In this document: positions 1-17,376 of the stretch, piece after piece
Layout: the number at the start of each line of letters is the position of its first letter
Numbering within the stretch: the stretch's first letter is position 1
IMG/VR virus record: IMGVR_UViG_3300048907_000177
Location: 1-17,376 of that record
Length of the DNA: 17,376 nucleotides
Direction: 5' to 3' (one strand)
Source of the DNA: a virus
Program-made: the position numbers and the translations under genes
The notes under the pieces: model-generated
Told to the model about the DNA's origin: nothing
The model's database searches: none
What the model saw: the letters and a program-made list of their open reading frames with translations, nothing else

Positions 1-127
1 CCCGCGCCTGTTCTCCCTTTCGCGCCCCGCGCGCACAGATTGTGACGGATAGTGACGGTTCTCGACCAGGCGCCGCCGCTTCTCGGTAAGACTGAGCCGC
101 GGCTCTGGACTCCGCCCCTGCGGGACC
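1..127. repeat. Terminal overlap, copy 1 (identical to 17250-17376)
   Basis: Base-by-base comparison shows 127/127 identity with the window end. The overlap includes the first 76 nt of the terminase ORF. Confidence 0.95.
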
Positions 128-1641: not shown

Positions 1642-1671
1642 TGATGGTCAACGGCGTGTCCACCTGTCACA

Positions 1672-4848: not shown

Positions 4849-4898
4849 GTCGTACCCGGCGGTGGGGTGGTAAGTGCTCACGCGCTTGCCGCCCCCCA

Positions 4899-4916
4899 AT
4901 GTTTCACGTGAAACAT
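4899..4916. repeat. Perfect 18-bp AT-rich palindrome ATGTTTCACGTGAAACAT in the capsid-downstream intergenic gap
   Basis: Read directly: ATGTTTCAC followed by GTGAAACAT. It lies in the 93-bp gap between 4848 and 4942. Confidence 0.9.
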
Positions 4917-4941
4917 CCAAGATCGAGGGAAGGGGCCCGGG

Positions 4942-5349
4942 ATGGGCGACCAGACGAACGAAGAGATCGCCGCGGAGCGTGACCGGCTCCAGGCCGAGAA
5001 TGAGCAGCTCAAGGCGCAGCTGTCCGCAGTCGGCGCGGGCACGACCCAGGCCGCGGCGCCCGCGCACACGTTCCAGCTGTCGGAGGCCGACCGGCAGGAA
5101 TTGGAGCAGCGCGGTTGGATCAACTACCGCGGCACGGTCATGACGACCGACGACGTCCGCCGCGCGCTCGGCAAGGATCAGGGGAAGGTGAAGATCAAGG
5201 ACGCTCCGAAGGACGCGCCCAAGCCTCCGACGCTGCCGACCCGCAACCCGGTGGCCGGCGTCGACTACGTGCCCCCGGCGACCGCGTCCGACGTCCCGAA
5301 CACGGAGGCCCCCTCGGACCGGCCTCGCTCCCGGCGCGGCGGGAACTGA
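4942..5349 (+). CDS. Coiled-coil protein of unknown function (scaffold- or decoration-like by position only)
   Basis: 135 aa. An RBS-like GAGGGAAGGGG lies upstream. The N-terminal heptad-like stretch is EEIAAERDRLQAENEQLKAQL, and the tail is Lys/Pro-rich. Confidence 0.7.
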   Translation: MGDQTNEEIAAERDRLQAENEQLKAQLSAVGAGTTQAAAPAHTFQLSEADRQELEQRGWINYRGTVMTTDDVRRALGKDQGKVKIKDAPKDAPKPPTLPTRNPVAGVDYVPPATASDVPNTEAPSDRPRSRRGGN

Positions 5350-5355
5350 CCTGCC

Positions 5356-5958
5356 ATGGCCTGGGCTCCCGACTACGTGACAGCGGCGAACCTCGATTCC
5401 TACCTGGAGATCGCGGACTCCGTCGATGACACGTTGCTGGCAGGCTGGGCCACCGCGGCGTCCCGCGCGGTCGACAACTGGGCGAACCGGCAGTTCGGGC
5501 AGCTCGCCGCGGCGGCGGCCCGGACCTACCGGGAGGTGCCGTTCTACAACTGGCGGACCGGCCTGTGGGAATTGCAGATCGACGACGTCCAGGACTTGAC
5601 CGGGATGACGGTCAACGGGGTCGCGTTCGCGAGCTCAGGCGCGGTGCTGCTGCCGGACAACGCGCCGTCCGATGGCGTCCCGTACACCCGGATCGGGTTC
5701 GCGGTCGTGCCTGTGCAGGCGAGCCCTGGCGTGTCCGTGACGAACGTGATCGTCGCGAAGTGGGGCTGGACTGCCGTGCCCGCGGCGGTACCGATGGCCT
5801 GCCGCTTGCAGGCGGCCCGCTGGAACTTCCGGCGTAACTCGCCGCACGGTGTGGCCGGCTCGCCCGATCAGGGGTCCGAGGTGCGGCTGTTGGCCAAGCT
5901 GGACCCGGACGTGGCCGTGACCCTGGCCGGTCTCGGTCGACCGCGGCGGCCCGGCTGA
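5356..5958 (+). CDS. Head-to-tail adaptor (gp6-like connector)
   Basis: 200 aa. The N-terminus PDYVTAANLDSYLEIADSVDDTLLAGWATAASRAVDNWANRQF matches the typical head-tail connector signature. Its position after the capsid module fits. Confidence 0.75.
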   Translation: MAWAPDYVTAANLDSYLEIADSVDDTLLAGWATAASRAVDNWANRQFGQLAAAAARTYREVPFYNWRTGLWELQIDDVQDLTGMTVNGVAFASSGAVLLPDNAPSDGVPYTRIGFAVVPVQASPGVSVTNVIVAKWGWTAVPAAVPMACRLQAARWNFRRNSPHGVAGSPDQGSEVRLLAKLDPDVAVTLAGLGRPRRPG

Positions 5959-6383
5959 TGGATCTCTACGCGCTGGCCACCCAGATCGGCATGGCCCTCA
6001 ACGCGGTCACGCCGGCCCTGCGGGTCTACCCGTACGGTGCCGACAAGATTGAGGCGCCGGGCGTGGTCGTCACCATGCCGGACGAGTACGGGCCGTCCTC
6101 GTACGGCCGGGGCGCCCGGCACCTGACCTCGATCGGCGTGCTGCTGTGTGTCCGCGGCGCCGCGGGGGTCCGGCCGCGCCGGGCGTCGCTGAAACAGCTG
6201 TACGCCTACTTGCAGGAGACCGGCACCGGGTCGATCCTCAAGGCCGTGGAGGAATACGCGTACACGGCCTGCATCCCTGGCACGATGGCCTGGAAACGAA
6301 CCACGTTCGACGTCCTGTCAATCGCGGGCGTCGAATACCTCACTGCTCTACTCGAATTCGACGCCGATGGCGTAGCGACCTAG
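5958..6383 (+). CDS. Neck / tail-terminator-like protein
   Basis: 141 aa. It is TGATG-coupled to the adaptor and sits immediately upstream of the major tail gene. The motif RVYPYGADKIEAPGVVVT resembles neck and tail-completion families. Confidence 0.6.
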   Translation: MDLYALATQIGMALNAVTPALRVYPYGADKIEAPGVVVTMPDEYGPSSYGRGARHLTSIGVLLCVRGAAGVRPRRASLKQLYAYLQETGTGSILKAVEEYAYTACIPGTMAWKRTTFDVLSIAGVEYLTALLEFDADGVAT

Positions 6384-6393
6384 GAGACCGGCC

Positions 6394-6804
6394 ATGCCTT
6401 ACACCCCCGTGCACGGCAAGGGGACCGTGCTCAAGCTCGGCGCCAACGACATCAGCCTGTCCACCCAGAATTCGGCGTTCTCCGGGTCGGCCGAGATCGC
6501 GAAGTCGTCCGGCTACACCGTCACGAACCACACCAAGGTCGCCGGGATCGTCGACGGACAGTTCACGGCGAACGGCTGCTACGACATCGGCGCGACGACC
6601 GGCACGAACACGCTGCTGGAGGGCAAGGAAGGCACGTCGTTCTCGATCACGCGGCAGGTGGCGGGCACCGGCTCGGGTAAGCCGCAAGAGGTCTTCACCG
6701 GCCTGCTCTCCAAGTTCGACGTGTCCGACCCGTACGACGGCCTGGTCCAGTGGTCGGCGACGTGGGAAGTCAGCGGTACGGTGAACCGGACCGCTCAGCC
6801 CTGA
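6394..6804 (+). CDS. Major tail protein
   Basis: 136 aa with a strong RBS (TAGGAGA). Composition is Gly/Thr/Ser-rich and beta-type, ending in WSATWEVSGTV. It lies directly upstream of the chaperone pair. Confidence 0.75.
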   Translation: MPYTPVHGKGTVLKLGANDISLSTQNSAFSGSAEIAKSSGYTVTNHTKVAGIVDGQFTANGCYDIGATTGTNTLLEGKEGTSFSITRQVAGTGSGKPQEVFTGLLSKFDVSDPYDGLVQWSATWEVSGTVNRTAQP

Positions 6805-6821
6805 TCGAGGAGAACCCCAAC

Positions 6822-7184
6822 ATGCTCAGCAGAGACGAGATCCTCGCGCGGAAGACGAACGCGCCGGGCCCGCAGCCATACCAGCTGTCGGACGGGTCGG
6901 GTGAGGTGATGATCCGTGGCCTGTCGGTCCGTGAGCGGCAGGCGGCCGGCGTGGCGGGTCAGGACCGTGACGCTGACGGGGTGACCCGCTCGACCGCGCT
7001 GATCATCGCCGCGGGGCTGGTCGAGCCGGCGCTGTCTCTTGAGGACGTGGAGGCGTGGTGTGACACGCCAGGGCAGGCCGAGGTGGTGGAGCGGTTGGCC
7101 AACAAGATCGCGGACCTTTCCGGCCTTGGTGAGGGTGCCGGGAAAAGCGGCGTACCGGCAGTTCGACGCAAATCCCGATCTTGA
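6822..7184 (+). CDS. Tail assembly chaperone (G-like, unshifted product)
   Basis: ATG at 6822 follows GAGGAG. The 120-aa product reads MLSRDEILARK...VMIRGLSVRERQ...LVEPALSLEDVEAW...LSGLGEG, typical of chaperones between the major tail protein and the tape measure. Confidence 0.8.
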   Translation: MLSRDEILARKTNAPGPQPYQLSDGSGEVMIRGLSVRERQAAGVAGQDRDADGVTRSTALIIAAGLVEPALSLEDVEAWCDTPGQAEVVERLANKIADLSGLGEGAGKSGVPAVRRKSRS

Positions 7185-7326
7185 GTTTGAGCACTTGCTG
7201 TGCGCTGAGTTGGGCGGGATGACCGTTGAGGAGATGAGGGATCGCATGACCAACGCCGAGTATGTGCGGTGGTCGGCGTTCTTCGCCCGGAAGGCGCAGC
7301 GTCAGCAAATCGCGGGCGGCAAGTGA
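6822..7326 (+). CDS. Tail assembly chaperone frameshift product (GT-like), requiring a +1 shift at about 7146
   Basis: The overlapping frame (open 7039-7326) encodes GMTVEEMRDRMTNAEYVRWSAFFARK, a typical T-extension motif. GGGAAAA lies in the overlap region. Confidence 0.6.
7140..7146 (+). promoter_or_regulatory. Candidate recoding (slippery) site GGGAAAA
   Basis: The upstream frame reads GGG AAA AGC. The downstream frame reads G GGA AAA GCG. Confidence 0.55.
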
Positions 7327-7736
7327 TGGCCACGATCAACATTGCGGGGCTCAAGGAATTCCAGCAATCGCTGAGGCAGATGGATGCCCAACTGCCGCGG
7401 CTGCTGCGGCTGGTGTTCAACGAGTCGATGGGGGTCGTGATCGGCTATGCCCGGGATCACATGCCGTCCCGGACGGGCCGGGCGGTGAATTCGCTCAAGC
7501 CAAAGTCGCAGCAGCGCACGGCCCGGATATCGATGGGCGGGAAAGCGTCGCCGTACGCGCCGTGGCTGGACTTCGGTGGTGAGGGCCGGATCAAGGGCCG
7601 GCCTCCGGCGCGGTCGTTCATGAAGGGCGGCCGGTACGTGTACAAAGGGCTGGCCGTCAAGAGCACGGAGATCACTGAGATCATGGCCCGCGGGATGACG
7701 GACATTGCCCGTCAGGCCGGATTGGACGTGAGGTAG
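7326..7736 (+). CDS. HK97 gp10-like head-tail joining / tail completion protein
   Basis: ATG at 7326 overlaps the T stop (TGATG). The sequence MATINIAGLKEFQQSL...ARDHMPSRTGRAVNSL...ASPYAPWLDFGG fits the gp10-family pattern. Confidence 0.75.
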   Translation: MATINIAGLKEFQQSLRQMDAQLPRLLRLVFNESMGVVIGYARDHMPSRTGRAVNSLKPKSQQRTARISMGGKASPYAPWLDFGGEGRIKGRPPARSFMKGGRYVYKGLAVKSTEITEIMARGMTDIARQAGLDVR

Positions 7737-7738
7737 AG

Positions 7739-8728
7739 ATGCCGAATCAGGTCACGCTCACGTTCGCCGGTGAGGAAAAGCCGCTCGTCTCGTCGATGGA
7801 CAACGTCGGATCCGCGGCTGACCGTATGGGTGATCAGGTGGGGTCAGCGGCGCGGCGGGTGTCGGATAGCTCGGGGGAGGCGGCCGGCGGACTGCATCGT
7901 ACGGGTGAGGCGGCAGATAAGGCCGAGACGTCCCTGATCGGTGTCCACGACGTCATCGACGGCACGGCGACGATCATGCAGGGGCCCGGTAAGGCCGGCG
8001 TGGTCGCCTACATTCAAGGCTGGGCTGATCTCGCTGGTGGTCTGGCCCCGCTGATTTTGCAGCTGGCAGAGACGAAGGTGGGCATCCTCGCTCAGGCCGC
8101 GGCGTCGCATGTCGCCGCCGCGGCGTCGAAGGTGTGGGCCGGTGCCCAGTGGCTGATGAACACGGCGCTGCTGGCCAACCCGATCACGTGGATCATCGTC
8201 GGAATCGTGGCGCTGATCGCGGTCATCGTGCTGATCGCGACCAAAACGGACTGGTTCCAGAGGGCGTGGCGTGCGTCGTGGAACTGGATCAAGACCGCGG
8301 CCGAGAACACGTGGGAGTTCATCAAGAAGATCCCGGGTTGGCTGGAGTCGGCGTTCAAGAACGTGGCCCGGTTCATCTCGGCGCCGTACCGGGCCGCGTT
8401 CAACCTGATCGCGGACGCCTGGAACTCGACGATCGGCCGGCTGTCCTGGACGGTGCCGGGTTGGATTCCGGTGATCGGCGGGAATACGATCAGCGTGCCG
8501 AACCTGCCGCACTTCCATGCCGGCGGCCGGGTGCCGGGCGGTCCGGGCCAAGAAGTGATGGCGGTGCTCCAGGGCGGCGAGACCGTGTCGACGGAGGCCG
8601 GTTCGAGCGGGGACCGCACGGTGGTGATGGGCGACGGCCCGCTGATCCGGTACGTGCTCGACGCCCTCGCGACCGAGGTGTCTCGCCGCGGCGGCAGACC
8701 TGAGCACCTCGGCTTGAAGGCGGTCTGA
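7739..8728 (+). CDS. Tape measure protein (unusually short, 329 aa)
   Basis: The N-terminus is alpha-helical and Ala-rich. The central hydrophobic segment is PITWIIVGIVALIAVIVLIA. Trp-rich repeats are present, and the C-terminus reads HFHAGGRVPGGPGQEVMAVLQGGETV. It lies after the chaperone genes. Confidence 0.8.
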   Translation: MPNQVTLTFAGEEKPLVSSMDNVGSAADRMGDQVGSAARRVSDSSGEAAGGLHRTGEAADKAETSLIGVHDVIDGTATIMQGPGKAGVVAYIQGWADLAGGLAPLILQLAETKVGILAQAAASHVAAAASKVWAGAQWLMNTALLANPITWIIVGIVALIAVIVLIATKTDWFQRAWRASWNWIKTAAENTWEFIKKIPGWLESAFKNVARFISAPYRAAFNLIADAWNSTIGRLSWTVPGWIPVIGGNTISVPNLPHFHAGGRVPGGPGQEVMAVLQGGETVSTEAGSSGDRTVVMGDGPLIRYVLDALATEVSRRGGRPEHLGLKAV

Positions 8729-8729
8729 C

Positions 8730-10847
8730 GTGGGTACCCCGCTGAGCCCGGTCACGCCGCAGCTGCGCTACAACTCGGCCTGGAACCCGGTGCCCTGCTA
8801 CGCCGACGACATGCCCACGGTGATCGAGCGCGGCTACACCGACGAGGGCACTATCAAGCCGTCGCGGATGTCGATGCGGATCAATGACTCTGCGGCGCCG
8901 ACGCTGAACCCGTCGCGGCCGAACTCGCCGCTGTATGGGGTGACGGGCCGGTCGATGCCGGCGGCGATCACGTGTGGCGGGACGACCCGGGCGTGGCTGG
9001 AAACCGCGGTGCTCGACCCGGATCAGGATCAGGCGTACAGCGAGGCCTCATACTCGACGGCGTCGCCGCGGGGGAAGCGGTGGATAGATCTGGAGGCGTA
9101 CGGGCCGCTGTACCGGATAGGCCAGTGGTCTGACTTGGTGCAGGCGCCGATGACCCGCACGTTCCTGTCGTACTCGAATCTGATCGGGTTCTGGCCCGGC
9201 GATGACGCGGGCCTGTCGACTCAGGTCGGCAACGGCGGATCGTTCTCGAACGTGACCGCGGGGGATGCGTCGGCGCCGGCCGGGGCGTCCGGGTCGTTCG
9301 TGGGGCAGGCCGGCTCGCACATGGTGCTGTCGCCGCTGACGAATTCGGACACGGCCGGGTTTCAGGTCTTCTGGTCGACGGACCTGTCCGCGGTGCCGGT
9401 GTCTCCGGCGACCACGCAGTTCTTGTACTTCCGGGCCAACCCGTCGCTCATCTGGTCGGTCGAGCTCGACAACGTCGCGTTCCACCTGAAGCTGTACTCG
9501 GCGGGCACGCTGGTCGACGACTCGAACATCTCCCTGGCCGGTGTGACGACCAACTTCACGGACTGGGTGACGTGGCGGGCCAAGTGCTACCAGTCCGGGG
9601 CGGATGTGAAGTGTGAGTTCGCGTGGTACTCCAAGTCGGACAACCTGATCTGGGGGTTCACCCGCACCTATGTGGGGTTGACGTTGAACCGGCTGACCTC
9701 GATCCGGATGGAAGGCAACACGCTGACCAACGGCACCCGGTACGCCCAGATCGGCGCGTTGACCTCGGTGGCCGATGATCTCCAGTCGTACACGGCGATC
9801 GCCTCGTTCAACGGCTATGCCGGCGAGTCGACCACGACGCGGTTCAACCGGCTGATGACGGAGGCCGGGATCTCCCGGGTCGTGATCGGCACCTCGACCA
9901 CGCTGATGGGTCCGCAGAAAGCGGACACGCTGATGAACCTGCTGAAGGAGATTGCGGCCACCGAGGACGGCCTGTTGTTCGATCAGAAGGACAACCCCCG
10001 CACGGTGCTGCGTACCCGCCGCTCCCGGGTGAATCAGGCGGTCGGTCTGACCCTCGATGCGAACGTGGATATCGTCCCGCCGTTCAAGGAGCGCGTGGAC
10101 AACGTCGGCGTGGCCAACGTCGTGACGATCACGGACCGGTCCGGGTACACGGGCACGGTGACCAAGACGACCGGGTCGATGGCGGCGACCGCGTACCCTG
10201 CCGGCATCGGCACCTTCAAGGGCGGCGCCCTGCCGGACGTCAAGGTCAACCTGAACAGCGCGGTCGACGACATGCCGGCGATGCTGGCCTGGTATCTGGC
10301 CCGCGGCACGGTGCCGGGCCCGCGCTGGCCCACGGTCACGATTGAGGTGGGGCAGCGGTCGCCGGGCCTGGCCGCGGCGGCGAAAGCGCTCGAAATCGGC
10401 GACCGGCTCCAGATCACGAACCGGATGGCCGACCCGATCGACTTGCAGATCATCGGGATCCGGGAGCGGATCGGGATCTTCGCGTGGGAGTTCACCTTCA
10501 CCTGCATTCCGAACGCCGTGTTCGACGCGGGCGCCGAGGACGACACCACGCACGCGCTAGACACCTACGCGAATACGATCATCACCGCGCCGGCTCCGGC
10601 GACCACGGGCACATCCATGGTGGTCGGGTCGGCGGACCCGGACGATGTGTGGTCGGCGACGTCGCTGCCGTACCCGATCATGGTGGCCGGTGAGAAGATG
10701 ACGGTGACCGCGGCGACCGCGCCGACGCTGGTGTCGGGGACGTGGCGGCAGACGTTGACGGTCACCCGGTCGGTCAACGGCATCGTCAAGGCTCAGGTCG
10801 TCGGCACGCCGGTGAACGTGTTCGCCCCGTACAGAGAGGCCTGGTAA
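8730..10847 (+). CDS. Minor tail protein (distal-tail / tip complex-like)
   Basis: 705 aa. The GTG start is 1 nt after the tape-measure stop. It is the largest tail gene downstream of the tape measure and looks beta-rich. Confidence 0.7.
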   Translation: MGTPLSPVTPQLRYNSAWNPVPCYADDMPTVIERGYTDEGTIKPSRMSMRINDSAAPTLNPSRPNSPLYGVTGRSMPAAITCGGTTRAWLETAVLDPDQDQAYSEASYSTASPRGKRWIDLEAYGPLYRIGQWSDLVQAPMTRTFLSYSNLIGFWPGDDAGLSTQVGNGGSFSNVTAGDASAPAGASGSFVGQAGSHMVLSPLTNSDTAGFQVFWSTDLSAVPVSPATTQFLYFRANPSLIWSVELDNVAFHLKLYSAGTLVDDSNISLAGVTTNFTDWVTWRAKCYQSGADVKCEFAWYSKSDNLIWGFTRTYVGLTLNRLTSIRMEGNTLTNGTRYAQIGALTSVADDLQSYTAIASFNGYAGESTTTRFNRLMTEAGISRVVIGTSTTLMGPQKADTLMNLLKEIAATEDGLLFDQKDNPRTVLRTRRSRVNQAVGLTLDANVDIVPPFKERVDNVGVANVVTITDRSGYTGTVTKTTGSMAATAYPAGIGTFKGGALPDVKVNLNSAVDDMPAMLAWYLARGTVPGPRWPTVTIEVGQRSPGLAAAAKALEIGDRLQITNRMADPIDLQIIGIRERIGIFAWEFTFTCIPNAVFDAGAEDDTTHALDTYANTIITAPAPATTGTSMVVGSADPDDVWSATSLPYPIMVAGEKMTVTAATAPTLVSGTWRQTLTVTRSVNGIVKAQVVGTPVNVFAPYREAW

Positions 10848-11353
10848 TGGCGGCTGGTGATCCGATCCTCGCGTCGGACTACGCGGCGATCAAGCGGACG
10901 TCGAAGGACACGCCGGTGTGCCGGCTGGTGCAGGCGGCCGCTCAGTCGATGCCGGACAACGTGGCGACCGCGCTGACGTTCGCCGCCGGGTCGGAGGTCA
11001 CGGACAACGATGGCTTCCATGACACGGTTACGAACAACACGCGGATCACGCCGACGTTCCCCGGCTGGTATCTGTTCACCGGGGCGGTGTATCTGGCTGC
11101 GGCCACGACACCGGTCACCCGTGAGGCGTACTTCCGGCAGAACGGTGCGACGTCGATCGCGCCGGGTAGTCGCGACGTGGGTCTGGCTATCACGTCGGCC
11201 ATCGACGTGGAGCCGGCGTACATCTACTGCAACGGCACGACCGACTACGTGGAGTTGATCTGCCGGCAGGACTCGGCGGCCGCGGTGAACACCAACGTCG
11301 CATCGCAGCAAACGTCGGCGTTCGGCTGCACTCTCGTGCGGCAGACTGCGTAG
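10847..11353 (+). CDS. Minor tail protein, possible receptor-binding jelly-roll protein
   Basis: ATG at 10847 overlaps the preceding stop (TAATG). At 168 aa it is the last tail gene before lysis. The motif GWYLFTGAVYL...YIYCNGTTDYVELI is reminiscent of C1q/TNF-like tips; this is a weak recollection. Confidence 0.55.
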   Translation: MAAGDPILASDYAAIKRTSKDTPVCRLVQAAAQSMPDNVATALTFAAGSEVTDNDGFHDTVTNNTRITPTFPGWYLFTGAVYLAAATTPVTREAYFRQNGATSIAPGSRDVGLAITSAIDVEPAYIYCNGTTDYVELICRQDSAAAVNTNVASQQTSAFGCTLVRQTA

Positions 11354-11354
11354 G

Positions 11355-11690
11355 GTGGCGGACGTGAAGAACAACCTGGGTGTGGTGATCGTCGCCGTGT
11401 GCGGCACGCTGGTCGTGCTGGCGTTCATCGCCGGGTACACGGTGCTCGGTGCGACCGGCCGGGACTCCGCTGAGCTGTCGCGGTTCGTGAACACGCTGCT
11501 GAACGCGGCCGGTCTGGTGTTCTCCGGGGTCGGCGGTATCGCCGGTATCGCCGGGTTCCTGAAGGCGCGGCAGGCCGCGGAGCAGACCAACGGTGGCCTG
11601 GATGAGCGGATCGTTGCCGGCGCCCGGGTGGCGCTGGCGGAGCAGCGGACGGCGGATGTGGCGCCGGGGGGAGAGCTACGTCGTGAGTAG
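11355..11690 (+). CDS. Holin-like membrane protein
   Basis: 111 aa with two hydrophobic segments (LGVVIVAVCGTLVVLAFIAGYTVLG and LLNAAGLVFSGVGGIAGIAGFL) and a charged C-terminus. It overlaps the next gene. An alternative in-frame GTG start lies at 11364. Confidence 0.6.
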   Translation: MADVKNNLGVVIVAVCGTLVVLAFIAGYTVLGATGRDSAELSRFVNTLLNAAGLVFSGVGGIAGIAGFLKARQAAEQTNGGLDERIVAGARVALAEQRTADVAPGGELRRE

Positions 11691-12387
11691 TTGGGTGCTG
11701 GTGCCGGCGCTGGTGTCGCTGCGCAATGAGTTCAACGTCCTGGCGCCGGGCCGGGATAGGGCGTCGGACGGCTCGATCGGCGACGCGGCGCATCGGGCTG
11801 AGGGCCCGTCCGGGCACAACCCGGACGACACTCCGGGGTCGACGCCGGAGAATTCGGACGCGGACGCGATTCCGGAGGTTCGGGCTATCGACGTCGATGC
11901 TGATCTCCGTCAGCCCGGTTGGTCGATGGAGCGGGCCGTGCAGATCATCGTCGACCGGCATCGGTCGGGCGTCGACACCCGTCTGGACTACGTGATCTAT
12001 AACCGGCGTATCTGGGCCCGCGCGTACGGCTGGGAGGAGCGCGAGTACGTCGGCGTCAACCCGCACGACAAGCACGCGCACTTCTCGTGCCGGGCCGGGT
12101 CGGGGACGGCCGGTAACCCGGAGGCGTTCACGGGCCCGTGGGGGCTCCTGGCAGATGAGGATGAGGGCATGGATGCGGCAGAGTTCATGGCGTCGGTGGC
12201 GCGCGCCGTCCGTAACAAGGCGGACGACCCGGCGTCGGCGGGTGACCGGGCCAACCGGACCAATTTTGCGGTCGGCGTGCGGTTCGCGCTGGGCTACAAC
12301 TGGAACGTCCAGGACGGCGACGACACGGTCCCGGATGAGAAGACGGTAATGGGCAAGCTGGACGAGATCCTCTCGCACGTCGAGTAA
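11683..12387 (+). CDS. Putative endolysin (zinc-peptidase-like peptidoglycan hydrolase)
   Basis: GTG at 11683 is preceded by GGGGGGAGAG. The 234-aa product has SDGSIGDAAHRAEGPSGHNPD ... RAIDVD ... NPHDKHAHFS, which resembles His/Asp metal-binding motifs of LAS/M15-type cell-wall peptidases. It is the last gene of the late operon. Confidence 0.5.
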   Translation: MSSWVLVPALVSLRNEFNVLAPGRDRASDGSIGDAAHRAEGPSGHNPDDTPGSTPENSDADAIPEVRAIDVDADLRQPGWSMERAVQIIVDRHRSGVDTRLDYVIYNRRIWARAYGWEEREYVGVNPHDKHAHFSCRAGSGTAGNPEAFTGPWGLLADEDEGMDAAEFMASVARAVRNKADDPASAGDRANRTNFAVGVRFALGYNWNVQDGDDTVPDEKTVMGKLDEILSHVE

Positions 12388-12416
12388 GCCTGCCCTAAGA
12401 AAAACTCGAGGTATGG

Positions 12417-12455
12417 GGGCCCGGCGCCGGGGAAGTGGCGCCGGGCCCTTTCTGT
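12417..12455. terminator. Bidirectional intrinsic terminator between convergent genes
   Basis: A perfect 12-bp stem (GGGCCCGGCGCC / GGCGCCGGGCCC) has an 8-nt loop and is followed by TTTCTGT. An A-run at 12398-12405 supplies a U-tract for the opposite strand. Confidence 0.8.
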
Positions 12456-12501
12456 GTCTCCGAGCGGCGCGGTCACTGCTCTCGTGCCGTCCGGGACCCG
12501 T

Positions 12502-13002
12502 CTAGCCGGCGCTGGTGTTGTGGAAGCCGACCGGGTCGCCGTTCTCGTTGAGGTGCTCGGGGGCGTAGACGTTGGTCTCGGCGACGCCGGTGTCCCGCGG
12601 GGGCACGTCGGATCCTGCGATCGCGGCCGGCGGCTGGTGGTTGAGGATGCTGGGCCGGGTCGCGCGGTCGGTGCCGTCGTCCAGGCAGTCGCGGTTATGG
12701 GCCTCGTACTGGAGCCGGTCAGCGTCGGTCATGTCCCTGCTGTAGAGCGTGTACAGCACGCGGATGGCGCCGTCGTCCAGGATCGGAATGTCGATGGCGA
12801 CGAACGCGTGACCGTCGTCGGTGTCGTTGAACAGCCTGATGTGCACGTCGTAGCGGTCGGCGATGTCGAGCATCTGCCGGCGGCTGAGGTTGTGGCGGCG
12901 GTAGACGGTCGTGGTGGGGGCGGGGAGCGCGCCGGCCTTGACCGCGTCGTTGAGGGACTGGGCGGCGGCGACGTTCAGGGCGGCTGTGTTGGGGTTCGTC
13001 AT
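12502..13002 (-). CDS. Hypothetical protein, the only minus-strand gene (candidate regulator)
   Basis: 166 aa with very high GC3 in this frame. The overlapping + strand ORF is Val/Gly/Asp-rich shadow. It is divergent from the early operon and has a terminator downstream. Confidence 0.8.
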   Translation of the reverse strand: MTNPNTAALNVAAAQSLNDAVKAGALPAPTTTVYRRHNLSRRQMLDIADRYDVHIRLFNDTDDGHAFVAIDIPILDDGAIRVLYTLYSRDMTDADRLQYEAHNRDCLDDGTDRATRPSILNHQPPAAIAGSDVPPRDTGVAETNVYAPEHLNENGDPVGFHNTSAG

Positions 13003-13009
13003 GCCAACG

Positions 13010-13039
13010 ACGATAGGGCACGACCGTGGCCACGGTCAA
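13010..13039 (-). promoter_or_regulatory. Leftward promoter, apparently leaderless
   Basis: On the minus strand TTGACC (13039-13034) is followed by 18 nt and then TATCGT (13015-13010). Seven nt further is the ATG at 13002. Confidence 0.6.
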
Positions 13040-13062
13040 CGGTTGACCGTTGATCGTTGACG
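13022..13062. repeat. Operator-like palindromes and heptad repeats
   Basis: A 16-bp palindrome GACCGTGGCCACGGTC spans 13022-13037. It overlaps a 15-bp palindrome GGTCAACGGTTGACC at 13034-13048. Tandem heptads GTTGACC GTTGATC GTTGACG span 13042-13062. Confidence 0.7.
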
Positions 13063-13072
13063 GGGGTATCGT
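13043..13072 (+). promoter_or_regulatory. Rightward early promoter, apparently leaderless
   Basis: TTGACC (13043-13048) is followed by 18 nt and then TATCGT (13067-13072). Eight nt further is the ATG at 13081. Confidence 0.6.
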
Positions 13073-13080
13073 CCCGAGCC

Positions 13081-13275
13081 ATGACGAAAACCAAGATTCG
13101 TACGGCCGCGGCGACCGCGGCCCGGCGCCGGCAGGCTCGCCTCCGCCGTATCGCGAATGCGGTGGCCCTGCTGCTGCGGCACGGCTACACGGTGGTCGAG
13201 CCGGCGCCTCCGGACCCTTGCGGCGATAACTGCCCGGACCCGTGGGCGCACGCTGAGGGTGGTCACGATGTCTGA
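13081..13275 (+). CDS. Small basic protein (Cro-like by position; possible DNA binder)
   Basis: 64 aa from the ATG at 13081: MTKTKIRTAAATAARRRQARLRRIANAVALLLRHGY. It is the first gene of the rightward operon and is ATG..TGA-coupled to the next gene. Confidence 0.6.
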   Translation: MTKTKIRTAAATAARRRQARLRRIANAVALLLRHGYTVVEPAPPDPCGDNCPDPWAHAEGGHDV

Positions 13276-13918
13276 CCAGCCGCCCCCGTGCGGGGACCAC
13301 GATGCCAATGAGCTGTCGTGCGCTGCGTGCGGCACGGTGCGCACCGTCTTCTACGCTGGCGTCGCTGTCGGCGTGGACGCGGGGGACCCGGTGCCCGTGG
13401 TGGCACCTCAGCTGCATCCGCAGATCTACGACGGGTCGATCGGTGATCTGATCAACCTGCCAACGGCGGCCGAGAAGTTGGCCGCGCGTGTGGCGGTCCT
13501 GTTGCAGGGTCACGCGGCCGGCCTGCACGTGCTACCGGCGATGGATTGCCCGTCGTGCTCGCCGGTGGAGACCCCGAACCGTGACCGGCTTCGGCGCCGC
13601 GCGGCCCTCGCGCTAGATCGCGTGTTCGAGGTGATGGGTGAGCGACAGGACGACGGCGATGGCGGAGAGCACGCGGTGGGGGTGGCCGAGGAGCGCTTCG
13701 TACAGTCAATGGGCGACTACGTTCTGTCGCGATTGCACCATAACAGTCATTATGGTGTAGCGGCCGAGCGCTGTCCTACCTGCGATTCGCCCGCGCCAAA
13801 CCTCCACCCGGCGATGCAGTCAGAGGGCGAGGTTCAGCCCTGCATCGACCGCTGGCACCTCACGCACAACATGGCCACGCATAAGCGGAATTATGGGGCC
13901 GACGATGCGCGCGGTTGA
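13268..13918 (+). CDS. Cys-rich hypothetical protein (possible zinc-binding)
   Basis: ATG at 13268 follows GAGGGTGG. The 216-aa product carries CGDH...CAAC, CPSC and CPTC motifs plus His-rich stretches. Confidence 0.7.
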   Translation: MSDQPPPCGDHDANELSCAACGTVRTVFYAGVAVGVDAGDPVPVVAPQLHPQIYDGSIGDLINLPTAAEKLAARVAVLLQGHAAGLHVLPAMDCPSCSPVETPNRDRLRRRAALALDRVFEVMGERQDDGDGGEHAVGVAEERFVQSMGDYVLSRLHHNSHYGVAAERCPTCDSPAPNLHPAMQSEGEVQPCIDRWHLTHNMATHKRNYGADDARG

Positions 13919-14084
13919 GCTGTTCGGCGGGGAGGGCGCTCCGTGGGCGTCGCCGCGCGGACTGTCGCTGTGCGTGCCGTGGCAGTACACGTACTTCCTT
14001 GGCCTGCAAGCGGCAGACCACATTAGACGGTCAATGGCGGAATCCGTTGGCCTGTATACGCCGGCTAAGGAGAATGCATCATGA
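13905..14084 (+). CDS. Small hypothetical protein
   Basis: 59 aa from the ATG at 13905, with an alternative ATG at 13893. Its stop overlaps the next start (ATGA at 14081-14084). GC3 is moderately high. Confidence 0.4.
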   Translation: MRAVELFGGEGAPWASPRGLSLCVPWQYTYFLGLQAADHIRRSMAESVGLYTPAKENAS

Positions 14085-14332
14085 CCGTGTTCATCGGCGT
14101 GCTGATCATCGCAGCCGTCATCGCGACGCCGATCGTCGCGGACGCGTGGGCCCGGCAGGCGCGGGCGCGCCGGGTCGTGCCGAACGTCAAGCCTCCGGAG
14201 GCGGTGAACGCGTTCATGGGCCGTGAGCCGGACACGTCGATGTGGGGCTACGCCATCTGGGTCAGGGACGGCGAGCTCTATTGGTGCCCGTACGTGCGGC
14301 CGGCGGCGCCTGTAGATGGAGATGGTGCGTGA
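14081..14332 (+). CDS. Small N-terminally membrane-anchored protein
   Basis: A strong RBS AAGGAGA lies upstream. The 83-aa product starts with MTVFIGVLIIAAVIATPIVA. Confidence 0.7.
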   Translation: MTVFIGVLIIAAVIATPIVADAWARQARARRVVPNVKPPEAVNAFMGREPDTSMWGYAIWVRDGELYWCPYVRPAAPVDGDGA

Positions 14333-14421
14333 TGCCGTGGTGGTTCTGGATGACCATGGGGTTTGCGCTCGGGTCGATCTGGGCCAGCGCGCTCATGTTC
14401 TGGCTCGCGGGTAGGCGGTGA
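14332..14421 (+). CDS. 29-aa Trp-rich single-pass membrane micropeptide (not in the ORF track)
   Basis: Hand translation gives MPWWFWMTMGFALGSIWASALMFWLAGRR. The ATG overlaps the upstream stop (TGATG). Its own stop overlaps the helicase GTG (GTGA). Confidence 0.5.
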   Translation: MPWWFWMTMGFALGSIWASALMFWLAGRR

Positions 14422-15839
14422 GCGGCTGGTCGCCCGGCGCCAAGTTTTTCAGCCCCGACTATGGGCTCATGGCCGGCCGTCTCGCCGACGCGGTTGAGGC
14501 GGTCGGCCCGCTCATGGTGGACACGCTTGAGGGCAAGATCTGGCTGTACGCCGATGGTGTGTGGCAGATGGATCGCGAGGGCAAGCGGTCCGAGGTGCGG
14601 CGCCGGGTCGTGCGGCTGCTGGGTGAGCGGTACCGGCCGGCGCACGCCCGCACGCTGGCCGAGGTGCTCGGCGCGCACCTGGAGCGATTCACGGTGGGCC
14701 CGCGGCCGGGGCTGATCAATCTGGCGGACGGTCTGCTCCGGTGGGGTGCCGACCCGGACCCGGTGCTCATTCCGCACCATCCGGAGGAACCGTCCACGGT
14801 GCAGCTGCCGGTGACATGGGACCCGGGCGCGACGTGCCGGGAGTTCGACGCGTTCCTGACGGCGGCGCTACCTGCCGATGACGTGGACCGGGCGTGGGAG
14901 GTGCTCGGCTACCTGATGATGTCGGGCAACCCGTTGCAACGCATGTTCCTGTTGTCCGGGTCGGGCGGCAACGGCAAGGGCGTGTTCCTGAACATCGCCC
15001 GGTCGCTGGTCGGGGAGGAGAATTTCGCCGCGGTCAATATCCACGAATTGGCAGAGGACCGGTTCGCGTCTGCCGATCTGTACGGGAAATTGGCCAACAT
15101 CTGCGGTGAGATCGACTCCACGTTCATCGAGAAAACGGCGCGGATCAAGGAGCTGTGCGGTGACGATGTGATGCGCGCTCAGCGCAAGAACGAAGATCCT
15201 TTCAGCTTCAAGTTCTGGGGTAAGGCGCTGTTCTCGGCGAACGCCATCCCGGGCACGTCGGACTCGTCGGTCGGCTGGTCCCGTCGGTGGGAGGTCATCC
15301 AATTCCCTTACGCACCAACGAAACCAGACCCTAAGCTGTCCGATCGGATCGTCGGGAATGAGCTGCCTGGGATCGCGTACAAGGCGGTGCATGCGCTCCG
15401 TCGCCTCATGCAGGCAGGCGCGTTCTCCACGGGAGAATCACGCGAAAAGGCGCACACGGAATTCGCGGATAAGGCCAACAAAGTGCGTCGCTGGCTCGAT
15501 GACCCTGAGTCGGGGGTGATCCGGTCGGACGTGGAAGAGCGCGTGTTCAACAAGGGCACAACGCTACTCAGGGCATTCCGGGAATGGGAAGAGCACGACT
15601 CCGGGAGCCGCACGCATACGGGTGTGCAGCGGTTCAATGAGCTATGCCGGCAGGCCGGTCTAGTGCCGGTCGTGAAGCGGGGCACGCGGGGGTACTACGG
15701 CACCCGGGTCATGCGCATGCCCTTCGGTGTCCCCCCGGCCGATCACCCGTGGCTCAACCATGAGGCCGGCGACCCACATGGAGATGTGCACCAAAGTGCA
15801 CCACCGGGCACCACGCCGGGCCCGTCTCCGCTGTTCTGA
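14418..15839 (+). CDS. D5_N / P4-type primase-helicase C-terminal (SF3) NTPase; replication initiator-helicase
   Basis: 473 aa with Walker A LLSGSGGNGKGVF. Other motifs are INLADGLLRW...PHHPEE...TWDPGATCREFDAFL (D5_N-like), KELCGDDVMRAQRKNEDPFSF, LFSANAIP and WSRRWEVIQFP. No TOPRIM or AEP primase domain is recognisable. Confidence 0.85.
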   Translation: MSGWSPGAKFFSPDYGLMAGRLADAVEAVGPLMVDTLEGKIWLYADGVWQMDREGKRSEVRRRVVRLLGERYRPAHARTLAEVLGAHLERFTVGPRPGLINLADGLLRWGADPDPVLIPHHPEEPSTVQLPVTWDPGATCREFDAFLTAALPADDVDRAWEVLGYLMMSGNPLQRMFLLSGSGGNGKGVFLNIARSLVGEENFAAVNIHELAEDRFASADLYGKLANICGEIDSTFIEKTARIKELCGDDVMRAQRKNEDPFSFKFWGKALFSANAIPGTSDSSVGWSRRWEVIQFPYAPTKPDPKLSDRIVGNELPGIAYKAVHALRRLMQAGAFSTGESREKAHTEFADKANKVRRWLDDPESGVIRSDVEERVFNKGTTLLRAFREWEEHDSGSRTHTGVQRFNELCRQAGLVPVVKRGTRGYYGTRVMRMPFGVPPADHPWLNHEAGDPHGDVHQSAPPGTTPGPSPLF

Positions 15840-16057
15840 CCTGGGGAAATAGCACTTCTGCACCACGGAAACGGGCTTTACCCCTCGGACCCCACGCGTA
15901 ACTACCCCCCATGAGGGCACCATGTCAATACCCCAATCCTGTGGTGCCCTTATGGGGTGCACATGGGCGTCCACCTACGCGGACGCGCGCGCTCTTTACT
16001 CACTGTTACTTACTTCCTTACGCTCTGTAAAGTCTGGTGTTGACGAACCCGGCACCA
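15786..16057. repeat. Iteron-like (G/T)GCACCA cluster with an AT-richer TTACT patch; candidate replication origin
   Basis: GCACCA occurs at 15788, 15798 and 15808 with exact 10-bp phasing, and again at 15860, 15917 and 16052. Inverted copies are TGGTGCCC at 15942-15949 and GGGTGCAC at 15955-15962. TTACT repeats lie at 15996-16021. Confidence 0.55.
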
Positions 16058-16139
16058 GCGGGGGACGATCGCTGTGCGGGCCCGCTTGTTGGGGGCGGGC
16101 CCCACTACCCAACCGAACCCAACTGGAAGGGATCATCCA

Positions 16140-16424
16140 ATGCCTCGCAAGACGAAGGCTCAGATCGCGCTTCTGCTCGGCGACCTGTACGCCGCAAAGA
16201 GCGACAAACGCAAGATCGAGACCCGTGTCAAGGATCTTGAGGCCGAGCTCGCCGCCATCCCGGCCCTGAAAGAGGGCGCGTACGGGGAGTGGACGTACAC
16301 CCTGGGCACGGCCCGGGAGATCCTCGATCAGGCCAAGGCCAAAGAGCTGCTGACCGAGAAAGGCCTCAAGGTGCCGACGGTGATGACCAAGGCGCCGATC
16401 GTCGTCAAGCCGGTGGTGAAGTGA
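16140..16424 (+). CDS. Small helical Lys-rich protein of unknown function
   Basis: ATG at 16140 follows GGAAGGGA. The 94-aa product reads MPRKTKAQIALLLGDLYAAKSDKRKIETRVKDLEAELAAI, which is coiled-coil-like. Confidence 0.7.
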   Translation: MPRKTKAQIALLLGDLYAAKSDKRKIETRVKDLEAELAAIPALKEGAYGEWTYTLGTAREILDQAKAKELLTEKGLKVPTVMTKAPIVVKPVVK

Positions 16425-16427
16425 CCG

Positions 16428-16577
16428 ATGCCGATCTTCGGAATAGGCAAGGGCAAAGGGTCATCTGGGTCGTCGCAAGGGGGCTCGCCCCCTGGCAACT
16501 CGAAGGGCTCCAAGCGACCACCGAAGAGCACGGGCAACAGCGGGAAGGGCAAGGGGCTGGGCAAGTCCGGTCGCTGA
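16428..16577 (+). CDS. Possible 49-aa Gly/Lys/Ser-rich peptide (not in the ORF track)
   Basis: Hand translation gives MPIFGIGKGKGSSGSSQGGSPPGNSKGSKRPPKSTGNSGKGKGLGKSGR. The ATG lies 3 nt after the previous stop. Confidence 0.35.
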   Translation: MPIFGIGKGKGSSGSSQGGSPPGNSKGSKRPPKSTGNSGKGKGLGKSGR

Positions 16578-16643
16578 AGCTCTGGCGCTCGGCCGGCCCG
16601 TCCAACCGAGGCCCGCGGCACCGCAGGCCTCGAGGCCGTGGCG

Positions 16644-16754
16644 ATGGGTGACCTAGCCGTCGTGCTGCTGCTCCTGCTCTTGGGTGCGTGGTGTTTCGGC
16701 GCCCTCATCGTGGACGAGATCAGAGAGGCGGGTGACCAGCGTGCGCGGCACTGA
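16644..16754 (+). CDS. Possible 36-aa single-pass membrane peptide (not in the ORF track)
   Basis: Hand translation gives MGDLAVVLLLLLLGAWCFGALIVDEIREAGDQRARH. Its stop directly abuts the HNH ORF start. Confidence 0.4.
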   Translation: MGDLAVVLLLLLLGAWCFGALIVDEIREAGDQRARH

Positions 16755-17075
16755 GTGGGGTTAGCGATGGAATGGGCCGGCGGCAGTACCCGGGCATGGC
16801 GCGCAGTCCGCGCGTTCGTGCTCTCACGGGACGGGTACCGCTGCCGGGCCCATGAGGATGGGTGGTGTGCGCGAGCGGGACGGCGCACACCACATCGCTG
16901 TCTAGGGGTGGCGCCGCTGGTCGGCGGGCACGCGCATCACACGCTCGGCCGGGCCCGGACCGGTGATGATCCGGCGTACATCGTGGCATCCTGCGAACCG
17001 TGCAACCTGCACATCGGCGAGCCCGAGACGCATCATGATCCGAGGAACAGGGCGGTGACCAGGTGGAGAGACTGA
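16755..17075 (+). CDS. HNH endonuclease (packaging-associated)
   Basis: Motifs are WRAVRAFVLSRDGYRC, GGHAHHTLGRARTGDD and ASCEPCNLHIG, which fit the HNH pattern. It lies immediately upstream of the packaging region and terminase. The start is ambiguous (GTG 16755 or ATG 16767). Confidence 0.85.
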   Translation: MGLAMEWAGGSTRAWRAVRAFVLSRDGYRCRAHEDGWCARAGRRTPHRCLGVAPLVGGHAHHTLGRARTGDDPAYIVASCEPCNLHIGEPETHHDPRNRAVTRWRD

Positions 17076-17300
17076 TCGGTCGCGTGCTGTGCAGGCTAGG
17101 CCTGCATGAATGGCTGCCATGCAGCGGATGGTGCGCCCGATGCGGGAGGGATCCGCGGTGAAAGATCTACGGAGAGTGACGGTCGTGTTGTGACCGGCCA
17201 CAATGGATTGTCGCGGCCCGATTTTTTCCGCGACCACGACCGGGGGACACCCGCGCCTGTTCTCCCTTTCGCGCCCCGCGCGCACAGATTGTGACGGATA
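17076..17300. other. Non-coding packaging region (candidate cos site and terminase recognition)
   Basis: Hairpins are TGCAGGC-tag-GCCTGCA (17090-17106) and CTGCATG/CATGCAG (17102-17124). GTGACGG or GTGACCGG repeats lie at 17176, 17190, 17291 and 17301. A T6 tract spans 17223-17228. The region lies between HNH and terminase. Confidence 0.5.
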
Positions 17301-17376
17301 GTGACGGTTCTCGACCAGGCGCCGCCGCTTCTCGGTAAGACTGAGCCGCGGCTCTGGACTCCGCCCCTGCGGGACC
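17250..17376. repeat. Terminal overlap, copy 2; 17301-17376 is a duplicate of the terminase 5' end
   Basis: Exact copy of 1-127. A length of 127 equals the largest k-mer normally used by SPAdes-type assemblers, which suggests a circular-contig overlap. Confidence 0.95.

Follow-up and report, generated by a model that had tools for sequence, protein, structure and literature searches.

Introduction

In P4, short iterons are recognised by the C-terminal domain of the alpha protein. In the Staphylococcus aureus pathogenicity islands (SaPIs), the origin of replication is located immediately 3′ of rep, the Rep protein is self-loading, and its winged helix at the C terminus recognises iterons of five or six nucleotides, which stand in opposite orientations around an AT-rich region (PMC9371898). 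A winged-helix origin-binding domain is also known for P4 alpha (PDB 1KA8; Yeo et al. 2002, as cited in PMC2777425), and the organisation of a helicase plus a winged helix is shared by P4 alpha and ORF904 of pRN1 (PMC2777425). The pRN1 origin lies in non-coding DNA just after orf904 and contains a stem-loop of ~100 nt, of which the structure is conserved and the sequence is not (PMC4234260). In this study, the virus record IMGVR_UViG_3300048907_000177 of IMG/VR was analysed over its positions 1 to 17,376 (hereafter, the window, meaning this whole stretch of 17,376 nucleotides), and the DNA from 15786 to about 16035, at the end of a superfamily 3 (SF3) helicase gene and in the intergenic region after it, is described as the probable replication origin of a phage of 17.25 kb. 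The computational evidence consists of the repeats found there, their conservation, their concerted change among relatives, constraint at the DNA level, and co-variation with one residue of the helicase. An iteron origin directly behind the gene of an SF3 initiator-helicase is of a kind already known and was expected; new here are the phage group, which is unstudied, and, as the most useful new point, a residue that predicts the variant of the repeat.

Repeats at the end of the helicase gene

The repeat region takes in the final 54 bases of the helicase coding sequence and, beyond them, the proximal two thirds of the 300-bp intergenic stretch that follows (Table 1). An earlier note on this DNA had reported three tandem decamers at exact 10-bp spacing in the last helicase codons, further direct copies of the core GCACCA, and two inverted copies. 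The decamers and the inverted copies were confirmed where they had been placed, and the positions of the inverted copies are conserved. The further direct copies likewise begin at the three positions given for them, but that at 15917 is private to the window, and that at 16052 belongs to GGCACCAG (16050-16057), which is a copy of a CACCGA element independent of the repeat class (see below) and not an iteron. The third decamer is present, but among the relatives its copy at 15806 was seen again in L067 alone, the closest of them. The 8-bp inverted repeat formed by GGGCACCA (15915-15922) and the inverted copy at 15942-15949 is also present, enclosing a 19-nt spacer of 47% guanine plus cytosine (GC), but it is not conserved.

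The repeat is an iteron of 7 bp with the consensus (G/C)TGCACC. Seven copies were found within 15786-15962, four of which are conserved in position across about 40 relatives. These four form two opposed sets, the direct copies at 15796 and 15858 and the inverted copies at 15943 and 15956, with a mildly AT-richer spacer of 75 bp between the sets. The conserved copies are 61-62 bp and 13 bp apart, and exact 10-bp phasing was limited to the in-gene tandem copies.

In the window, 19 copies of GCACCA were counted where 12.5 ± 3.5 were expected, and 15788-16057 holds 7 of them. When the tightest 272-bp cluster of every 6-mer was scored, GCACCA gave the top frequency-adjusted cluster of the genome, and its score was matched in 6 of 300 dinucleotide shuffles by any 6-mer at any position (p ~0.02); the raw count of seven clustered copies was unexceptional among common GC-rich words. 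A count of (G/T)GCACCA against shuffled controls, which had been suggested along with the original observation, gave 14 copies against 5.4 ± 2.3 expected, and 14 was reached in none of 200 shuffles. The exact heptamer GTGCACC was found three times in 17.4 kb, each time inside 15786-15962, and its one-mismatch matches outside the cluster were at chance level (90 against 90.3 expected). No other repeat family and no second repeat cluster was found elsewhere in the genome. Taken from the window alone, the repeat signal is real and moderate.

Conservation of the layout among relatives

Relatives were gathered from helicase-protein scans and homologue look-ups, which gave about 40 distinct loci with helicases 39-89% identical, many of them on contigs of 17-19 kb. 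A non-coding layout was common to all of them except the most distant. In this layout, one to three direct copies in the last helicase codons are followed by a direct copy about 20 nt past the stop codon, then by a box containing ACGCGT, TGTCAA, a pair of inverted copies at a distance of 12-13 bp, about 20 nt of spacer, a TACGCG..ACGCGCG box, and finally a pyrimidine-rich, AT-richer tract. Relative to the right GC box, the conserved copies are located at about -175, -114, -32 and -19. Among close relatives, AAGTGCACC at the 15796 copy is invariant, and the position of the 15956-15962 copy is kept in nearly all relatives, even those with a different motif.

The repeat itself varies between lineages, with the forms GTGCACC, GTGCCCC and TTGCCCC and some rarer ones, and within any single genome all copies, direct and inverted, have the same variant. 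Loci were accordingly assigned to class A (GGTGCA) or to classes B/C (GGGGCA). The region of class-A loci contained almost no class-B/C hexamers, and the converse also held.

The in-gene copies were found in all three reading frames across the relatives (28, 19 and 4 copies, read as SAP, VH/VP and CT, respectively), the conserved in-gene copy of the window is written with two rare codons, AGT (1.3% of the Ser codons) and GCA (5.3% of the Ala codons), and the tail encoded by the iteron-bearing DNA (residues 446-473 of the helicase) is predicted to be disordered. For these reasons, the in-gene repeats are maintained as DNA and not as protein. By their behaviour among the relatives, the repeats appear to be protein-binding sites.

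A structured RNA, or a functional hairpin or cruciform with the repeat copies as its arms, was considered as another explanation of the same pattern. A direct and an inverted copy can pair, A/C and T/G changing together, and the window folded better than its shuffles (z = -2.8 as RNA and -3.2 as DNA) through a 17-bp hairpin (15907-15923 / 15941-15957); the origin of pRN1, moreover, is a stem-loop downstream of the rep gene (PMC4234260). The left arm of the window hairpin, however, is missing from L001 and L067 (89% identical), the hairpin z-scores of the main clade mostly stayed inside ±1.7, the exceptions being L050 and L090 at about -2.2 to -2.5, and the extra tandem and in-gene copies have no pairing partners. 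Analysis of 19 sequences with alifold gave only a 6-bp helix between iterons (-4.9 kcal/mol, with a covariation term of +0.18). The sole match in Rfam 15 scored 16.6 bits against a gathering threshold of 46 (E = 4.8), and no tRNA was detected by ARAGORN. Because no Rfam or tRNA match was obtained and the consensus helix is limited to 6 bp, a structured RNA was judged very unlikely to account for the repeats. Non-coding RNA and tRNA were rejected as candidates on these results, and a conserved stem-loop of the pRN1 type was rejected for the main clade, in which the DNA folds of individual sequences were mostly no better than those of shuffles.

The 16-mer CTACGCGGACGCGCGC was also tried as a means of finding relatives and was rejected, as it matched many unrelated high-GC contigs by chance; only the five known relatives extended past the 16-mer, and the matches in L007, L017 and L032, which were inspected, were coding.

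Residue 419 of the helicase and the repeat class

For the first test, 36 loci were sorted by repeat class and their helicases were aligned over 440 columns. A single column separated class A from classes B/C, that of residue 419, at which lysine was found in 13 of 13 class-B/C loci and V, I or T in class A, with R in one locus of mixed repeats (L100). In the AlphaFold2 (AF2) model of the window helicase, residue 419 is placed in the strand E416-420, just after the helix 403-412.

Predictions for unseen proteins were written before their DNA was fetched. For P0120 (T419) and P0056 (I419), whose first 335 residues place them inside the class-B clade (69-73% identical to class-B helicases), class A was predicted and class A was found; for P0097 (K419), class B was predicted and found, which makes 3 of 3 in the prospective test. 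P0019 (Y419), for which no prediction was made, carries class A. In the enlarged set of 24 class-A and 14 class-B/C loci, residue 419 was still the sole separating column of 442, with V/I/T/Y (R in L100) in class A and K in class B/C. The classes are not simple clades; class-B loci fell at two separate places in the helicase tree, class-A loci also occurred in the distant clade, and residue 419 followed the motif over at least three independent switches. Residue 419 is a candidate for the specificity residue that would read the variable base of the iteron. The pairing of a hydrophobic side chain with T and of lysine with G is chemically sensible, and the contact between residue and base is a proposed one.

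If another protein bound the repeats, for example the terminase, a cos/pac packaging factor or a transcription factor, the match of residue 419 would be hitch-hiking. Genes for an HNH-like protein and the terminase are located no more than 1.3 kb downstream, HNH follows the intergenic region directly in some relatives, and cleavage at the conserved GC box is conceivable in principle. TerL is nevertheless 1.3 kb further downstream, beyond three or four open reading frames (ORFs) that include HNH, and the position of the HNH ORF favours the 225-bp gap after it (17076-17300), a plausible cos site, as the likelier place of packaging; the analogy behind this placement is with HNH-associated cos phages. 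The layout is also retained in L066, an integrated element described at the end of this report, in which a Pfam scan detected no terminase among the ten largest ORFs. Since HNH and further ORFs stand between the region and the terminase, and L066 carries the layout without a detected terminase, a packaging site is unlikely. The downstream 94-aa protein served as a control: none of its 78 columns separated the classes, and it is absent from several loci that retain the iterons, so that it was rejected as the reader of the repeats. As residue 419 tracks the motif over the independent switches, including the two loci nested in the opposite clade, binding by a protein other than the helicase was considered quite unlikely.

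Helicase protein and proposed course of initiation

The helicase matched Pfam DUF5906 (1.2e-21) and D5_N, as well as the NCBIfam model TIGR01613 ('phage/plasmid primase, P4 family') with 149.8 bits against a cut-off of 108.7, and is an SF3 helicase of the P4/D5 family. The best PDB match was 7OLA (PriRep5 of SaPI5; sequence E = 2.5e-11, fold E ~1e-9, identity ~15%), and those 7OLA chains in which the C-terminal domain is built aligned over 426-436 columns, about 60-90 more than the chains without it. In the AF2 model, the C-terminal domain (about residues 340-431) comprises a helix at 380-395, a helix at 403-412 and a β hairpin at 416-427; the predicted local distance difference test (pLDDT) values ranged from 81 to 96 for residues 351-450, fell below this range at 341-350 and dropped to about 50 in the tail. 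Searched by itself, this domain matched mainly winged-helix DNA-binding domains (RFX5, TubR, HSF, SmtB and the ORC winged helix), weakly.

The two conserved direct copies around the helicase stop codon, with the 10-bp tandem extras, and the two conserved inverted copies about 80 bp further on would form the iteron set. The winged-helix-like C-terminal domain of the adjacent helicase would bind these iterons, and wing residue 419 would read the single position at which the iterons of different lineages differ. Once bound, the helicase would self-assemble on the DNA, like SaPI Rep and P4 alpha, and would then open the duplex at the adjoining GC box and lowest-GC tract (15975-16035). As the helicase is without a primase domain, priming and synthesis are presumed to be carried out by host enzymes.

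The ORF at 13157-13918 (253 aa), upstream of the helicase gene, is poorly conserved; it was considered as a SaPI-like upstream primase and rejected, as it has 10 weak homologues and no family match. In the relative L071, a C5 DNA methylase gene (PF00145; 1416-2504) is located directly upstream of the helicase gene and overlaps its start.

GC boxes, AT-richer tract and promoter-like site

The right GC box is the most conserved non-coding block of the region, and a similar block was found in L066. Of the two GC boxes, the left contains CGCGTA (15895-15900) and the right its inverse, TACGCG (15976-15981), so that the inverted iteron pair is enclosed between the arms of an inverted repeat. In a distant clade (L061, L094, L097 and L099), the boxes are expanded to alternating GC/GT runs (GCGCGTGTGTGTGTGCGCG ... 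CACACGCACGCGC), which can pair across TGTCAA and the inverted repeat pair (DNA fold of L061, z = -5.9). TGTCAA was also considered as a minus-strand -35 element (TTGACA), which is unlikely; the corresponding '-10' (TAGTTA, TAGATA or TAGGTA) is without the final T, and a matching '-10' is missing from relatives of the L050 type.

The stretch at 15991-16035, noted earlier as the least GC-rich and as carrying four TTAC repeats, proved to be the GC minimum of the genome in windows of 30, 45 and 60 nt (40% against ~67%), and it contains 4 of the 10 plus-strand TTAC of the genome. This tract is a candidate DNA-unwinding element.

Further downstream, a promoter-like site (16040-16069) was assigned from positional conservation only. 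Relatives retain both the -35 and the -10 position, and their -10 reads TACCGT (L001, L002 and L046), GAGCAT or CACCAT, and the spacer carries CACCGA(C/T)G, which is unchanged where the repeats of the relatives differ. Strict scans of 15600-16300 for sigma-70 promoters and intrinsic terminators gave nothing. Past the promoter-like site and ahead of the next gene's ribosome-binding site, an 8-bp GC stem (GGGCCCGC / GCGGGCCC) with the loop TTGTTGGGG was observed at 16068-16092; no T run follows it. At the same place, L072, L091, L101 and L111 have a hairpin with differing stem sequences that look compensatory, and no hairpin is present in L002, L004, L005 and L046.

These features bear on the question of whether the sites, although truly bound by the helicase, are regulatory, serving autoregulation, a transcription block or termination, or control of the promoter-like site, with replication starting elsewhere. 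The direct copy at 15858-15864 overlaps a weak terminator-like hairpin and a conserved GGnTTT, the conserved promoter-like site is about 90 bp downstream of the inverted pair, and the co-variation of residue 419 tells who reads the sites and not the consequence of the reading. On the other hand, the C-terminal domain of every studied relative in this family serves origin recognition, namely in SaPI Rep (PMC9371898), P4 alpha (PMC2777425) and pRN1 ORF904 (PMC4234260), no other repeat cluster in the genome is able to serve as an origin, and the lowest-GC tract adjoins the repeat sites. A purely regulatory role was therefore regarded as unlikely.

Weighing of the origin assignment

Several points weigh against the assignment of 15786 to about 16035 as the origin. 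The motif classes were set by eye before the column test, which made the first association with residue 419 post hoc, and the prospective test (n = 3) repairs this only partly. In a fold search with the C-terminal domain alone, no significant match was obtained (best E = 0.09), and no phage primase was identified. In contrast to SaPI, the convergent iteron sets do not enclose the AT-richest tract, which lies outside them, and no conserved iteron pair was found beyond this tract in the phage clade. The cumulative GC skew climbs almost monotonically, with a dip at 15600-16200 that mirrors C-rich intergenic DNA; because all genes are on one strand, the skew is uninformative about the origin.

The core of the earlier note, which is an iteron origin with an adjacent P4-type helicase and an AT-richer patch, is nevertheless supported by the layout shared among about 40 relatives, the concerted change of the repeats, the co-variation of residue 419, the P4-family assignment of the helicase, and its best solved relative, SaPI5 PriRep5, whose element has an iteron cluster as its origin directly behind rep (PMC9371898). 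Its parallel to P4 was borne out for the helicase family but not for a second, crr-like cluster, of which none was found in the genome. From these data we infer that the helicase binds and melts the DNA here and that the origin fires, with melting proposed at the right GC box and the tract next to it.

A more specific proposal, which combines a one-residue, one-base origin code in this phage clade with the GC boxes as a distinct second component of origins in high-GC hosts, is put forward as a tentative one, rather doubtful when both parts are taken jointly. Wing residue 419 may read iteron position 6, with V/I/T/Y for T·A and K for G·C, and this code may have flipped repeatedly and so produced separate replication-specificity groups among otherwise similar phages. 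The class-independent ACGCG boxes of alternating purines and pyrimidines, which L066 also has, may be the site of a host factor, or a non-B-prone segment that nucleates melting without truly AT-rich DNA.

The region gives a concrete candidate origin for a large clade of ~17-kb actinobacteriophages without a cultured relative in the phage records searched. One residue that predicts one base of the binding site across independent switches is rarely available for winged-helix initiators, and the pairing of residue 419 with the repeat could serve the design of orthogonal origin-helicase pairs for high-GC hosts.

Genome and neighbouring genes

The 127 bp at positions 1-127 are an exact repeat of 17250-17376, and 127 is a common maximum k-mer length of assemblers. 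By this terminal overlap, the window is a circularly closed assembly with a unique length of 17,249 bp and represents the complete genome of an uncultured actinobacteriophage. The genome has a GC content of ~67%, and all genes, including those for tail proteins, are on the plus strand. The 1058-aa ORF downstream of the terminase gene may be a portal-capsid fusion or two genes read through. For the HNH-like ORF, no Pfam, PHROG or NCBIfam match was obtained at the thresholds used. No near-identical DNA relative was found among 50,697 deposited phage records, and the terminase shares no more than ~35% identity with the terminases of cultured actinobacteriophages. More than 370 homologues of the helicase were found, and the longer contigs bearing them were mostly of 17-19 kb.

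Table 1. Positions of the features in the window (the last line refers to the element L066)
Feature	Position	Strand	Remarks
Large terminase (TerL)	52-1641	+	
1058-aa ORF	1672-4848	+	portal match at residues 76-367; match to major head family phrog_2263 at residues 436-597
SF3 helicase gene, 473 aa	14418-15839	+	
Val419 codon	15672-15674	+	first strand of predicted wing, ..QRFNELCRQAGLVPV[V]KRGTRGYYG
Tandem decamers GTGCACCAAA, GTGCACCACC, GGGCACCACG	15786-15815	+	exact 10-bp steps, last helicase codons
Iteron GTGCACC	15786-15792	+	first of 10-bp tandem set; also in L046, L067, L072, L077, L088, L089, L091, L114
Iteron GTGCACC	15796-15802	+	in helicase C-terminal codons; position kept in relatives examined, sequence tracks repeat class
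Degenerate iteron GGGCACC	15806-15812	+	third of tandem set; window and L067 only
Intergenic region after helicase gene, 300 bp	15840-16139		
Iteron CTGCACC	15858-15864	+	19 nt past stop codon; position conserved; 61-62 bp from in-gene copy
GCACCA direct copies	starts at 15860, 15917, 16052	+	
Left GC box CACGCGTAACTA	15893-15904		includes palindrome ACGCGT; invariant columns; independent of iteron class
GGGCACC copy	15915-15921	+	private to window; left arm of 17-bp hairpin
TGTCAA	15923-15928		near-invariant: GTCAA throughout, leading T in most loci; directly ahead of inverted iteron pair
Inverted copies	15942-15949 (TGGTGCCC), 15955-15962 (GGGTGCAC)	-	
Inverted iteron, plus GGTGCCC / minus GGGCACC	15943-15949	-	position conserved
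Inverted iteron, plus GGTGCAC / minus GTGCACC	15956-15962	-	13 bp from 15943 copy
Right GC box CTACGCGGACGCGCGCGC	15975-15992		tandem ACGCG units in alternating purine-pyrimidine run; independent of iteron class
AT-richer tract, 71% pyrimidine	15991-16035	+	four TTAC; family consensus TTACTTACTGT; conserved in relatives
Promoter-like site (TTGACG, 18 nt, GACGAT)	16040-16069	+	faces downstream genes
106-aa ORF with HNH-endonuclease signature (..RDGYRC..GGHAHH..CEPCNLHIG)	16755-17075		just upstream of terminase gene
L066 module	7252-7420 of L066		two direct GAAGTCACTT, two inverted copies, CTACGCTCGTACGCGCG block, further inverted pair

Comparison with known systems

The window locus resembles the SaPI origins (PDB 7OLA, 7OM0 and 7PDS) in its place directly downstream of the helicase gene, in iterons of 5-7 bp in both orientations, in an AT-richer segment, in a C-terminal DNA-binding domain as the proposed reader, and in a specificity that differs between related elements. 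It differs in that no recognisable primase is fused to the helicase or adjacent to it, the iterons begin inside the helicase coding sequence, and the AT-richest tract stands outside the opposed iterons, whereas that of SaPI stands between them. The class-independent boxes (ACGCGT and TACGCG..ACGCGCG) and TGTCAA are without a described counterpart in SaPI, and the host belongs to the high-GC Actinomycetota, the element being a complete small phage and not a satellite.

With P4 alpha, the window helicase has in common an SF3 helicase followed by a C-terminal domain, here predicted to bind DNA, together with short iterons. In contrast, alpha has a DnaG-type primase domain, which the window helicase does not have, P4 needs separate ori and crr where the window has a single cluster, and the iteron sequence of P4 is unrelated to that of the window. 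ORF904 of pRN1, a fusion of prim-pol, SF3 helicase and winged helix, is similar in its SF3 helicase and in its C-terminal winged helix (PMC4234260, PMC2777425), which in the window helicase is a putative one, and the pRN1 origin is similarly located just after the replication-protein gene, behind a small terminator-like hairpin (PMC4234260). The difference from pRN1 is that the window conserves sequence repeats and boxes, with no conserved stem-loop in the main clade.

L066 is an integrated element in a metagenome-assembled genome of an uncultured member of the Actinomycetota (contig CAVUUF010000025.1), with a tyrosine integrase gene of its own and DUF499 genes nearby. It encodes an 810-aa PrimPol-D5_N-SF3 fusion, of which the SF3 part is 40% identical to the window helicase. 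As in the window, two direct iterons, two inverted iterons and a CTACGC..ACGCGCG block follow the helicase gene. The iteron of L066 (AAGTCACTT) is, however, unrelated, PrimPol is fused to the helicase, and an iteron pair is present beyond the GC block, an arrangement more like that of SaPI in which opposed pairs flank the central region. Judged from present evidence, the helicase is the only component common to L066 and the phage layout.

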